DNA from: an uncultured Thermoleophilia bacterium
GTDB lineage: Bacteria > Actinomycetota > Thermoleophilia > UBA2241
DNA: 64,000 nt
Assembly (NCBI GenBank): GCA_963848545.1
Contig: CAWKEZ010000110.1
Location: 8,979-72,978, forward strand
Reading direction: 5' to 3'
How positions within the stretch are numbered: the stretch's first letter is position 1; each line of letters starts with the position of its first letter. A program made the position numbers and the translations under genes. The notes below the pieces were generated by a model, which was given only the letters and a program-made list of their open reading frames with translations, did not search any database and had not been told where the DNA came from. Positions 254-63,492 of this stretch are shown one piece after another.

Positions 254-1544
254 CAGCCGGCCGCGTTCTTGAATGCGGCCTTTCCCGCGAACCTCGCCTG
301 AGAGCCAAGCTCGTCCTCGATCCTGATGAGCTGATTGTACTTGGCAATCCGCTCACTCCTGCATCCAGAGCCCTGTCTTCGAGATGCCCCGCGCCCGTCG
401 CTACCGTCAGATCAGCTATCGTGGTGTCCTCCGTCTCCCCTGAACGGTGGGAAACGAAACAGTTGTAGCCGTGTGAGCCGGCCAGCTCCATGGTCTTCAG
501 CGTCTCACTCAAGGTCCCGATCTGGTTCAGCTTGATGAGGACGGAGTTCGCCACGCCCTGCTCGATTCCCTTGGCAACGATCTGGGGATTCGTGCAGAAG
601 ATGTCATCTCCGACTAGCTCGATGCGGTTTCCAAGCTCCTTTGTGAGCGCCTGCCATCCCGGCCAGTCGTTCTCCGCCATTCCGTCTTCCAGGAGAATGA
701 TGGGGTACTGTTTCACCCAGTCAGCCCAGTGCCGAACCATCTGCTCCGGCGTCTTGGAATCCGTATGGGACTTGAAGAAGACGTACTTGCCGTCCTCCCA
801 CATCTCGCTCGCGGCCGGATCCAGGCAGAGGGAAATGTCAGCTCCAGGCTTGAACCCGGCTTTCGTGATTGCCTCGAGTATCAGCTCCACTGCCTCCCCA
901 TTTGACTTGAGGTTCGGCGCAAAGCCCCCTTCGTCTCCCACCGCGGTGATGTACCCCTTTTTCGCAAGGATTCCCTTCAGCGAATGGAAAGTCTCTATTC
1001 CCATGCGGATGGCTTCCGTAAAACTGGGGGCGTTGTGCGGCGCAACCATGAACTCCTGGAAGTCCACGGTGTTGTCCGCGTGCCTGCCTCCGTTGATGAT
1101 GTTCATGCAGGGAACCGGGAGGAGAGCCGCGTTGACGCCGCCCAGGTAGCGATACAAGGGAAGACCCAGATGGAGAGCGGCCGTGCGTGCGACGGCAAGG
1201 GAAACGCCAAGGATGGCGTTGGCGCCAAGGTTCGCCTTGTTCGGGGTGCCATCGAGGGCAACCATTGCGGCGTCGATGGATCCCTGCGCGGTGACTTCCT
1301 GGCCGATAACCGCTTTCGTGATCTTTGTCCTGACGTTCTCCACGGCCTTGCGGACGCCCTTACCGCCGTACCTGTTCTTGTCTCCATCGCGGAGCTCAAC
1401 CGCCTCTCTTTCGCCGGTGGATGCTCCCGACGGAACGATGGCGCGACCCTTGAGTCCCGAGTCCAGCTCCACCTCGACTTCAACTGTGGGATTGCCGCGA
1501 GAATCCAGCACCTCGCGGGCATGGATTGCCCTGATCTTTGCCAT
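254..1544 (-). CDS. eno: enolase (phosphopyruvate hydratase), frameshifted ~372-390 near C-terminus
   Basis: ORF 201..1544 starts [25 protein letters not shown] and matches enolase throughout to ...[15 protein letters not shown]; canonical C-terminus [35 protein letters not shown] is in another frame ending at 254. Confidence 0.9.
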
Positions 1545-1660
1545 GAATCTTCCTCCACCCGTGGTTTCTTGTAGGAGTCATCGGCCCTCGGAAGAAGGCG
1601 GTTGGATTGGGGGGACTCCATCCCCAGTCATTTCACTTTAAGATGCGCGGATAATTCGCG

Positions 1661-2536
1661 TCAAGAGACGGCAGCGACCCATCGGACCGCGGCCTCTTGA
1701 AGCGGGGGCGCCATCGAGAGAAAGATATGGGCGCCGTTTGAGCCGACCTCCAGGGTATTTCCCTGGATTCGCACTCCTGTCATTCGCGACCTTGGGATGA
1801 CAAAAGAATCGACTCCGTATCGTTCGGTGGATTCCATCGGGTCACACAAGTACACCAGCTCAAAGGGGTTCAAAACAAGGAGTTGCCTGCGCTGTGCCTC
1901 ATGACGGGACCTCCCGGGGACGGCTGCAAATGAAGAAATAACCGGGGAGTCCTCTTCAAGCCTGACCAGGGGCTCTTGGAGCAGAACTTTCCATTTGTAA
2001 GGCGGTTCAGCCGTCCACGCCTCGGCACGGGGGACGGGCCGGGCGGATCCTGCCAACCTCTTCCTGAGGCGGAGGAGCGCCGGCTCCATTTCACGGCGTG
2101 CCACTGTATTGTAACGGATGGTCAGCCGGTCCCCAAAGGGCACAAAACTGAGCCGACCGTAGAGGAGGATCGCCACGTCCTCGATTGCGGCCACTTTTTC
2201 CAGGGGAATCGAAATCTTCACCCCTGGCTGTGGTTTTTCCGTCCACAAACCAACCGCCCGATCTCCGAGGGCCAGGACGCTGTTGGGAGAAATCACCTTC
2301 TGGCTGAGCCGCCCGACAGAGCGGACCGCCCATGGGATTATGAATATCTGGCTCAGGTCCTGAATACCGCACGTATCCTCAAGAGGCTCGCGGGCGCCTG
2401 ACGGGATGTCGTCTTCACGGCGAGGAGTGTACGGGTGGCTGGCGCGCTCGCTTTTGAAATAGGAGCCCCCTTCAGCTTCTGTAAATTGGATTTCCCAGGT
2501 CTCGGCAGGATCTCGAGAATGAACGGATTCTTTCAT
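1661..2536 (-). CDS. hypothetical protein (291 aa), no recognisable domain
   Basis: Long ORF on same strand as flanking genes; no motif recognised. Confidence 0.35.
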   Translation of the reverse strand: MKESVHSRDPAETWEIQFTEAEGGSYFKSERASHPYTPRREDDIPSGAREPLEDTCGIQDLSQIFIIPWAVRSVGRLSQKVISPNSVLALGDRAVGLWTEKPQPGVKISIPLEKVAAIEDVAILLYGRLSFVPFGDRLTIRYNTVARREMEPALLRLRKRLAGSARPVPRAEAWTAEPPYKWKVLLQEPLVRLEEDSPVISSFAAVPGRSRHEAQRRQLLVLNPFELVYLCDPMESTERYGVDSFVIPRSRMTGVRIQGNTLEVGSNGAHIFLSMAPPLQEAAVRWVAAVS

Positions 2537-2630
2537 GGCTGTGCTTATATGTACGACGAGGATGTTGCTTCGTCAATCCGCGATCAGCGCAGCACGGAAG
2601 GACCGTCCCGCTGCGAGTCGAGGCAGCCAA

Positions 2631-60620: not shown

Positions 60621-60967
60621 AGCCCAAGTCGTCCGACCCGTGGCGGCTCCGCATGGTGAGGCGACGAAGTGCGCCTCGCCGGTTCATTCGCCGGCATCAG
60701 CTGCGAAAGGCGGGGCATTCGCTGGCTGCATCCGACGCCACACACATCCAGTCAGCAACTTGTCCATGTACACCCCCGATGCCTTCTGGCACCGGGGCAC
60801 GACTTGCCTGCCCGAGGCCGCCTGTGGAACAATGCAGTGACGAGCAGTTCTCTAGCGTACTGCCGAGTATCACGAGTCGGTCTCCTCTCACACCGCGTGC
60901 ATCACGAGGTGAAGTCGTCCCCCGAGGCGTCCCTCACGGCGGCGCCCGCTCACCGAGGTAGGTGGTA

Positions 60968-62240
60968 ATGACCAGCGACCTTTCCAGCTTTGTGATCGCC
61001 AGTGCCCGACCTGCCGCAGTGCCCGCGGTGCGCGTCGACGACACCACCCTGCGCGACGGCGAACAAACCGCCGGCGTGGTCTTCTCCAACCACGAAAAGG
61101 TGCGCATCGCCAGGCTGCTGGACGAGGTGGGCGTACACCAGATCGAGGTTGGCATCCCGGCCATGGGCGGCGACGAGAAAGAAACGATCAAGCAGATCGT
61201 CAAGCTGGGGCTGGATACCTCCATCCTCGCCTGGAACCGCGCCGTGATCGAAGACATCAAGCACTCCATCAACTGCGGTGTCGATGCGGTGGCCATCTCG
61301 ATGTCGGCCAGCGACATCCACATCGAGCACAAGCTTCAGAAGTCACGCCAATGGGTGCTCGACCAGATCCGCGAGTGTGTGGCGTTCGCCAAGAGCCACA
61401 ACCTGTACGTCTCGGTGAACGCCGAAGACGCCTCGCGCGCCGACCTCGAAGTTTCTGCTGCGCTTCGGCCAGGCCGGCAAGGAGGAGGGCGCCGACCGCC
61501 TGCGCTTCTGCGACACGTTGGGCATCCTCGACCCGTTCGACACCTATAACGTCATCGCGTTCCTCAAGAGAGAGGGCGGGTTCGACATAGAGATGCACAC
61601 GCACGACGACTTCGGCATGGCTACCGCCAACGCGTTGGCCGGCATCAAGGCTGGAGCGACCTACGTGAATACCACTGTGAACGGCCTCGGCGAGCGTGCC
61701 GGCAACGCGGCGCTCGAAGAGGTGGTCATGGCGCTCAAGTACATCGGCAAGGTCGACATGGGCCTGCACACCAGTCGCTTCCGCGAGCTCAGCGAGTACG
61801 TGGCGGCGGCCTCGGCGCGCACCGTCCCGTCCTGGAAGAGCATCGTGGGCACCAATGTGTTCGCGCACGAGAGCGGCATTCACGCCGACGGCGTCATCAA
61901 GAACCCGCTGAACTACGAGGCCTTCGCCCCCGAAGACGTGGGGTTGGAGCGCCAGATCGTGGTGGGCAAGCACTCCGGCTCGCGCACCATCTACCGCAAG
62001 TTCCAGGAGTTCGGCCTGGAGCTCTCGCAGGCCGATTGCGAGGGCATCCTGGCCCTGGTGCGGCAGACCGCGGTTGAGCTCAAGAGGGCCCTATTCGACA
62101 AGGAGCTCATGTACGTCTACCAGGACTACCTCGGGAGGCTCGGCGACTCGGTGCCCATGGGCAACGGCGTCTCGGCCGACGACTCTCAGATCGCCGCGGC
62201 CGCCCAGGAGGCCGCCGGCGCGGCCGAGGTGCCTTCGTGA
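60968..62240 (+). CDS. LeuA/NifV-family synthase (short form: 2-isopropylmalate / homocitrate / citramalate synthase), frameshift ~61445
   Basis: VDDTTLRDGEQTAGVVF... (DRE-TIM), HTHDDFGMATANALAGIKAGA, no C-terminal LeuA regulatory domain. Confidence 0.7.
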
Positions 62241-63492
62241 CGGAACTCACGCTGGCCGAGAAGATACTCGCCGCGCACGCCGGGCTCACCGAGGTGGTGC
62301 CCGGTCAGATCGTCGTCGCCGAGGTAGATGTAGCTATCGCTCAAGACGGCACCGGGCCGCTCGCCATCCAGCAGATCGAAGCGCTCAACGGCGGCGCTGT
62401 GAAGGCGCCCACCTGCGTGTTCTTCATCGACCACGCCGCACCGGCGCCGCGCAGCGAGCTGGCCACCGCGCAGAAGACGATCAGGGCGTTCTGCGCTTCG
62501 TCCGGTGCCACGCTCAGCGACATCGAGATGGGCGTCTGCCATCAGCGCGTGGCGGAGAGCTTCGCGCGGCCTGGCGATCTGGTGATCGGCGCCGACTCGC
62601 ACACGTGTATGGCCGGCGCCTTGGGGGCGTTCGCCACGGGCATGGGCAGCACCGATGTGGCCGTGGGCATGGCCAGCGGCAAGACGTGGCTGCGCGTGCC
62701 GGAGACGTTGCGCGTCGAAGTCCTCGGCGCGTTGCCGGACGGCGTTGAGGCCAAAGACCTCATCCTCACGCTGATCGGCACGCTGGGCGCGGACGGCGCC
62801 ACCTACAAAGCGCTCGAATTTGGAGGGCCGGGCATCGCCGCGTTGCCGATGCCCGGGCGCTTCACGCTCAGCAACATGGCGGTCGAGGCCGGCGCCAAAG
62901 TGGGGCTCATGCCCAGCGACAACTCGACCCGCGCCTTCCTCGCCGAGCTCGGCCGTGAGGCCGACTGGCGGCCTCTGGCGGCCGATCACGGCGCTGCCTA
63001 CGAGCGCGTGGTCAGCCTCGACGCCGGCGGCATGGTACCCATGGTGGCGAGGCCGCACACCGTCGACAACACCGCGCCGGCGGCCGATCTCAAGGGCACC
63101 AAGATCGACCAAGTGCTGATCGGCACGTGCACCAACGGTCGTCTCGCCGACCTGCGCGCGGCGGCGCGCCTGCTGCGCGGTCGGCGGCGCGCCGCGTACA
63201 CCCGCCTGATCGTCACCCCGGCCTCTCAGGCGGTGGCCAGGGCGGCTCTCGCCGAGGGCCTCTTCGAGCTCTTCTGGGACGCCGGCGCCGTCATCACCAA
63301 CCAGGCTGCGGTGCCTGCGTGGGCGTCCACGAGGGCATCCTGGCCGACGGCGAGGCCTGCCTGAGCACCGCCAATCGCAACTTCCGCGGACGAATGGGTA
63401 ATCCCGAGGCGTCTATCTACCTGGGCTCGCCGGCCACAGCGGCCGCCACGGCCGTGGCCGGCGAGATCAGCGATCCTCGCGAGCTTCTCTAG
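62237..63492 (+). CDS. aconitase-family dehydratase large subunit (LeuC / homoaconitase-like), frameshift ~63310; no small subunit follows
   Basis: GTGA overlap with upstream synthase; ...[18 protein letters not shown]...; C-terminal ...[32 protein letters not shown] in ORF 63127..63492. Confidence 0.7.

Follow-up and report, generated by a model that had tools for sequence, protein, structure and literature searches.

The window analysed here (64,000 nt of contig CAWKEZ010000110.1, deposited under an uncultured Thermoleophilia bacterium) carries about 31 frame-breaking insertions or deletions (indels) of 1-2 nt, 23 insertions and eight deletions, in 19 of its roughly 55 genes. These are very probably consensus errors, made during assembly or polishing of the metagenome contig, and not mutations in a living genome. 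An earlier note, made from the sequence alone, had preferred sequencing or consensus error to genome decay, and our comparisons bear that preference out: nine of the ten indels that could be compared within the species are private to the window, the tenth (3248) is missing from the haplotype of the one other assembly that carries it, the encoded proteins are restored by editing, and the substitutions indicate purifying selection. In addition, two genomes have most likely been joined in error in this contig, at 11,625|11,626. We refer to window 1-11.6 kb as region A and to 11.6-64 kb as region B.

The breaks lie within coding sequence that is otherwise continuous. When stop-to-stop pieces of the open reading frames (ORFs) are matched to NCBIfam models, the model coordinates run on from one frame to the next: 1-387 and then 387-424 of 425 for eno, 2-179 and then 179-376 for hutI, 2-379 and then 373-545 for hutU, 3-40 and then 39-254 for livG (within Walker A), 1-165 and then 166-250 for folD, and 150-200 and then 197-352 for Fic. 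The TreT-like gene has a stretch of 34 codons in which the true frame is an alternative one, fitting positions 66-96 of the TreT model. In three-frame views conserved motifs likewise continue across frames, among them GPNGAGKT of LivG, HPFVGGNGR of Fic and the YY(I/L)... stretch of GatA. Intact orthologues used as tblastn queries matched the window in two to four segments in differing frames for livK, livM, livG, livF, hutU, ftcD, hutI and eno, and also for Lrp, GatA, the LeuA-like and LeuC-like proteins, FolD, NuoE, the APC permease and Fic. The alpha/beta-hydrolase gene (36.5-37.3 kb) passes Pfam thresholds only once four frame changes have been stitched together; its separate pieces fail. 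Nearly every coordinate given in the earlier note coincides with a same-strand frame switch in a codon-usage frame model, and all of the genes named there as split across frames are indeed split, no more than about 25 nt from where it placed the break. Other same-strand switches in the model, such as those at SmpB/PCD, NuoE/NuoF and livM/livG, were rejected as frameshifts and are ordinary gene boundaries. The breaks listed in the earlier note are present in the sequence, although the list was incomplete, lacking those at 370, 3936, 6650, 8134, 8158, 47356, 50825 and 59193; the last of these, a 2-nt event, adds a fourth break to the three that had been recognized in gatB.

The breaks are unevenly distributed. 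The segment 0.37-10.9 kb has ten of them and 36.5-63.3 kb about 20, while between 11.9 and 36.5 kb the codon-usage frame model found no within-gene frame switch. The domain architectures of the ten ORFs scanned in 15.4-33.6 kb are complete, and window 24.1-27.4 kb is matched without gaps by a Logan contig at 99.91%. The earlier note's figure of roughly one indel per 1-3 kb does not apply evenly along the window.

Region A could be compared with five assemblies of the same species, L083, L084, L085, L086 and L087, which were found through an intact enolase allele of 429 amino acids (aa). L083, L085 and L087 are metagenome contigs from ENA, named in the style of the long-read assembler Flye; L084 and L086 are NCBI genome contigs whose names are uninformative on the assembler. 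Window 1-11,625 is 97.6-98.0% identical to these assemblies at the nucleotide level, compared with 98.7-99.5% among the five themselves. The six-way alignment of region A contains ten 1-nt insertions in the window, and nine of them occur in no other assembly. The remaining one, at 3248, is common to the window and L087 only, and since L087 is not the closest relative of the window, it has recurred independently. The five assemblies are themselves unevenly affected. L084 is free of private 1-nt indels, with every gene intact, while L083 has one such indel (breaking hutI), L085 two (breaking hutU) and L087 three (breaking eno); in L087, HutU is also fused to FtcD, a false fusion of 877 aa analogous to that of FtcD and HutI in the window. 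In L086, livK is called as two pieces, and the alignment shows no indel that would account for the split.

Logan contigs, which are assembled from k-mers, extend this comparison to a single haplotype. Three of them belong to the haplotype of L087: L093 differs from L087 at none of 3,181 nt, and L091 at four of 4,557. None of the three indels of L087, 3248 included, is found in L091 or L093. As for the window's own insertions in the part covered by Logan contigs, 370 and 380 are missing from L091, L093 and L094, 3248 is missing from L091 and L093, and 3936 is missing from L091. This comparison gives direct evidence for the assembly process as the source of such indels. Relatives with Flye-style names carry further frameshifts of their own: L082 has three extra bases (at 5123, 5176 and 5271) in a 268-aa gene, and its APC permease (1708-3525) is shredded, L003 has a shift in its APC permease opposite window position ~51190, L085 has broken MutS genes, and the eno of L087 lies in two parts. 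Such errors are thus common in assemblies of this family.

Correcting the indels restores the proteins. We edited 25 sites, deleting 17 insertions and adding eight missing bases; two more edits, in the TreT-like gene, stood outside the orthologue check. The edited sequence gave single full-length tblastn alignments for 18 genes, the alpha/beta-hydrolase being stitched at the protein level instead. The products of livK, livH, livM, livG, livF, hutU, ftcD, hutI and eno then aligned with the L084 proteins as single, full-length and gap-free matches, and eno, once 370 and 380 had been removed, matched the intact 429-aa reference at 100% identity. Most corrected region A proteins are 99-100% identical to their references, with lower values for LivG (90.9%) and LivF (93.3%), which are encoded in a divergent tract. 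For Lrp, GatA, GatB, the LeuA-like and LeuC-like proteins, FolD, NuoE and the APC permease, the result was one full-length match each to proteins of L082 or L002, the corrected region B proteins being 68-99% identical to these more distant orthologues. All 163 aa of the corrected Lrp align with the 163-aa protein of L082 at 99.4% identity, the corrected GatB has 484 aa, just as its homologues do, and the corrected Fic matches the L095 protein in one segment covering residues 140-687.

The substitutions show purifying selection. Among the 159 window-private substitutions, 113 are synonymous and 46 non-synonymous, and 115 fall at codon position 3. In-frame stops or gene remnants were not seen in the affected genes, and none is left in the corrected ones. 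Most of the substitutions (140) lie within the divergent livF/livG tract; outside it, only 0-3 substitutions separate the window from its nearest relative in each 400 nt, yet these same stretches contain frameshifting insertions. Such a ratio of indels to substitutions is not produced by real evolution under purifying selection. The tract itself (~6500-8070, about 1.5 kb) differs by roughly 10% from each of the five same-species assemblies, in surroundings that are ~99.8% identical, and includes 25 extra nt at ~6564. Along region A as a whole, the closest relative alternates among L083, L085 and L087; this switching and the tract could be due to strain recombination or to a mosaic consensus. 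In-frame differences in tandem-repeat copy number were also seen, with one 9-nt GCGTTGATC unit absent from the window at ~2591 and a 15-nt duplication in L084 opposite ~1679, and these look like genuine strain variation.

Where the extra bases fall gives some indication of how they came about. For five of the ten region A insertions, a position at which the other five assemblies differ from one another is no more than 2 nt away; the background fraction is 7.7% (binomial P = 5e-4). At four of the five, the window has both alleles in tandem: a C/A polymorphism appears as CCA (10898), A/C as CA (8158), and TC/CT as CTC (3936), for example. At the fifth, 8134, the extra G matches neither allele. 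Among the causes of the indels, collapsed strain polymorphism appears to be a major one. We infer, from the Flye-style names of sister contigs and from the pipeline of the Microflora Danica (MFD) long-read catalogue, that the contig was probably assembled from noisy long reads; the relatives of window 38-64 kb are genomes of uncultured Thermoleophilia, and several belong to that catalogue. For its long-read genomes, Nanopore reads were the sole data, assembled with Flye and polished once with Medaka (PMC12313526). Reads of several co-occurring strains would have been merged into one consensus, and wherever the strains differed the consensus caller may have written both bases, giving an insertion, or neither, giving a deletion. 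Systematic errors in short G/C runs and in a recurrent CC[G]GGCA context (the inserted base in brackets), which is also struck elsewhere in L085 and L087, would have been added to these. Strain collapse would also account for the clustering of errors and for the clean stretch at 11.9-36.5 kb.

On the coding strand, many of the insertions read NNC[G] and fall at a codon boundary, and a YYC[G]N pattern is seen at 380, 7963, 8134, 37591, 47113, 50825, 51837 and 59604. This form is consistent with, though no proof of, third-position synonymous C/G polymorphisms with both alleles written out. Only about one third of the events are changes in run length, most being insertions of G or C outside homopolymers. 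In livG, where the earlier note had listed a CCC run among its homopolymer sites, a G is inserted after CCC on the gene strand and the C run keeps its length. Four frameshift sites lie at a CTCGAAG heptamer. Methylation at CTCGAG or at a CTCGAAG motif was considered as a general cause of error and dropped, as the window has 51 intact CTCGAG and 28 CTCGAAG/CTTCGAG sites that are mostly unaffected.

The indels of the window resemble those known from long-read assemblies (Nanopore or PacBio CLR) and looked for by the IDEEL test, in that 1-nt changes split conserved ORFs with the frame regained at once, are missing from independent or short-read assemblies, and yield full-length proteins on correction (PMC9262707; PMC12007338). 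Truncated proteins are the usual symptom where consensus quality, which depends on coverage, is insufficient, about 40-fold coverage being required for a near-finished consensus from Nanopore R10.4 reads (PMC9262707), and fragmentation of genes by long-read errors has been described (PMC12007338). The window differs in that only about one third of its sites are homopolymeric, insertions prevail, and half of the testable ones sit at strain-polymorphic sites. These differences bear on a second form of artefact, plain basecalling noise from low coverage or homopolymers with no relation to strain polymorphism, which was the mechanism implied by the earlier note and which we regard as possible but rather doubtful. 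Sites in G/C runs (3248, 5341, 6650, 11858-64 and 59312) fit such noise, as does the recurrence of the CC[G]GGCA context across three assemblies, and the coverage dependence of R10.4 consensus quality (PMC9262707) would favour it as well. However, some two thirds of the events involve no change in the length of a homopolymer, the coincidence with known polymorphic sites at five of the ten region A insertions would be left unexplained, and uniform noise would not give the strong clustering, with no event seen in 11.9-36.5 kb.

Genuine recent frameshifts in one strain, be it a mutator or a member of a decaying lineage, would make the broken genes true pseudogenes, and we consider this very unlikely. 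The indels are present in the deposited sequence, 3248 is present in two assemblies, and an IS5-like transposase adjoins the most damaged gene. Yet the affected genes include the normally indispensable eno, gatA, gatB and folD, and the lesions are not inherited, nine of ten being private and 3248 both ignoring relatedness and missing from L087's own haplotype; sister contigs with Flye-style names each 'lose' other genes. No nonsense mutations accompany the indels, substitutions are mainly synonymous, and where segments are nearly identical, indels about equal substitutions in frequency or exceed them. Bacterial pseudogenes are expected to show a deletion bias, the opposite of the 23 insertions and eight deletions found here. 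Decaying genomes, such as those of Mycobacterium leprae and recent symbionts, are similar to the window in having many frameshifted genes per kilobase, but their lesions are inherited and deletion-biased, come with stop codons and relaxed selection, and spare essential genes, none of which holds in the window. Real indels would mean one strain with dozens of very recent core-gene frameshifts, mostly insertions, and with it either a hypermutator or dying lineage or an unknown recoding that rescues the proteins, an outcome to which we give even less credence. Programmed recoding, with ribosomal frameshifting or transcriptional slippage restoring the frame in vivo, has in our judgement a negligible chance of being correct: it would fit the immediate regain of frame and the conserved downstream protein, but no orthologue compared has a shift, the shifts go in both directions, and the contexts are heterogeneous, with no common slippery motif among the sites (the candidate CTCGAG stands intact 51 times in the window).

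Several points weigh against consensus error as the explanation, and against strain collapse as its cause. The evidence is a comparison of assembled sequences, and the sequencing platform behind the window is itself deduced. That an indel is private to one assembly is directly shown for window 1-11.6 kb only. For 11.6-64 kb, the comparators are species 68-92% identical (L002, L003, L082 and L095) together with the Logan contig L001, which (3.3 kb, gap-free) spans no indel site. The protein collection searched holds no GatB more than 93% identical to that of the window, making a same-species comparison impossible for this part, and exact-protein look-ups with gatC, livF and a 310-aa gene for contigs spanning region B sites gave no match; a look-up with the mis-called GatB of the window was likewise unsuccessful. 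The support for strain collapse comes from five of the ten region A sites.

The probable misjoin, which the earlier note did not detect, is marked by an abrupt change in homology. Homology to a species labelled Spirochaetia (L087) is perfect up to 11,625 and then ends inside an aldo-keto reductase gene, which is cut to its ~110 C-terminal aa. At exactly 11,626, homology to an 809-kb contig of a Thermoleophilia genome (L095) begins, inside a gene for a 687-aa Fic_N+Fic protein; the Fic gene of the window lacks its first ~143 codons. The names of homologues change accordingly, being Spirochaetia or Bacteroidota for the enolase and Thermoleophilia for GatB and RpoD, and the GC content at third codon positions (GC3) rises from 0.64-0.83 before the junction to mostly 0.88-0.95 beyond it, with 0.79 in the adjoining Fic fragment. 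In assembly ERZ25039519, both organisms are found on separate contigs. The junction (11625..11626, supported by homology boundaries, taxon names and GC3) is similar to those of known chimeric metagenome contigs in its sudden switch of taxonomy, composition and relatives and in the flanking genes being cut mid-gene. It differs in that neither a shared repeat nor a mobile element that might explain the misjoin was found there. We also considered whether 12-35 kb could be a strain-specific mobile island, and rejected this, as core genes (rpoD, nadE, ftsEX, smpB and a gene for an RNB-domain exoribonuclease) are present; it is the Thermoleophilia part of the chimera. Within this part, smpB (28639-29130) lies just upstream of a tRNA-Arg(CCG) gene (29594-29670, plus strand), which is followed by a 69-aa remnant (29675-29881) resembling the C terminus of an IS630-family transposase, with no Pfam hit.

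The individual sites of the left-hand part, to 10.9 kb, all fall in genes on the minus strand. In eno, an extra base in the 3' region at 370 (ACAGGG[C]TCT on the gene strand, ACAGGA-TCT elsewhere) is found in the window only among nine assemblies and contigs, and a second at 380 (CATCTC[G]AAGACA on the gene strand) disrupts the conserved KTG, as seen in the profile split, the alignment, Logan contigs and restoration. The extra G/C at 3248, in a CCCGGG context, lies in hutI, where the profile splits at 179 and where, as described above, only L087 has the same insertion and neither L091 nor L093 does. At 3936, 14 codons before the ftcD stop, a window-private extra base at polymorphic positions removes that stop; because of it, FtcD and HutI appear fused in a 561-aa ORF (3127-4812, minus strand), although all relatives encode FtcD separately, as a protein of 306 aa. 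The 561-aa product and an aberrant 447-aa eno product are recorded gene calls of the 75,121-bp contig deposited at NCBI/ENA, according to an exact-sequence look-up. In hutU, an extra C at 5341 turns CCC into CCCC on the gene strand, and in livG an extra G at 7963 follows CCC in the Walker A sequence (GGTCCC[G]AATGGC), both supported by profile split, alignment and restoration. Alignment, polymorphism and restoration support the extra G near the 3' end of livF (6650, a T/G polymorphic site), the extra G in the 3' region of livM (8134), the extra base in the same region at 8158 (an A/C polymorphic site with both alleles in the window, CTCC[A]TTGG), and the extra base in livK at 10898, where the C/A polymorphism is read in the window as GGCCAGGC with both alleles. 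Just beyond the junction, on the plus strand, the Fic motif HPFVGGNGR lacks one base at the end of a G run (11858..11864), with the profile split at 197-200 and L095 one base longer.

In the right-hand part, the minus-strand alpha/beta-hydrolase gene has four frame changes whose positions are approximate, at 36940..36965 (directly before the GASMG nucleophile elbow), 36740..36760, 36568..36576 and 36525..36535 in the order of the gene, all from the three-frame reading and from Pfam stitching. Directly downstream of this gene is an IS5-like DDE transposase gene (DUF772 + DDE_Tnp_1; 35178-36299, minus strand). The other sites are on the plus strand. The TreT-like gene has one extra base at 37585..37597, moving the frame from +0 to +1 (frame model and fit of the alternative frame to the TreT model), and one base missing at 37690..37705, with the frame regained 100 nt on (frame model and profile). 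In folD, an extra G at 47113 (CACTTC[G]AACATC; profile split, orthologues and restoration) is followed by a second extra base at 47350..47362, placed to within about 6 nt by the three-frame view, orthologues and restoration. Orthologues and restoration identify the base missing from the nuoE-like gene at 48042 (TGTTC[-]CAGGCG), which is C in L002 and G in L003, and the extra G near the 3' end of lrp at 50825.

For all remaining sites, the three-frame view, orthologues and restoration agree. Bases are missing from lrp at 50409 (T, ATCGTG[-]CTCTCC), from gatA at 58562 (A, TACTAC[-]TCATCG), from gatB at 59661 (G, GAGCC[-]GACATC) and from the leuC-like aconitase-family gene at 63301 (T, ACCAA[-]CCAGGC). 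The APC permease gene has an extra base at 51753 and an extra G at 51837 (GTGCTC[G]AACAGG), and gatB has two extra bases (CA) in codon 11 at 59193..59194, an extra C in a C run at 59312 and an extra G at 59604 (GACTTC[G]TCGATG). The leuA-family (HMGL-like) gene has an extra G at 61451 (CTCGAA[G]TTTCTG).

The value of this analysis is above all in quality control. Pseudogenes, fusions, truncations and odd gene neighbourhoods in the window are to be discounted unless reads confirm them, and the same caution extends to the truncated aldo-keto reductase and Fic genes at 11.6 kb; the deposited genome that holds this contig mixes two phyla. The window also serves as a worked example of how strain polymorphism, collapsed in a long-read metagenome consensus, turns substitutions into frameshifts.

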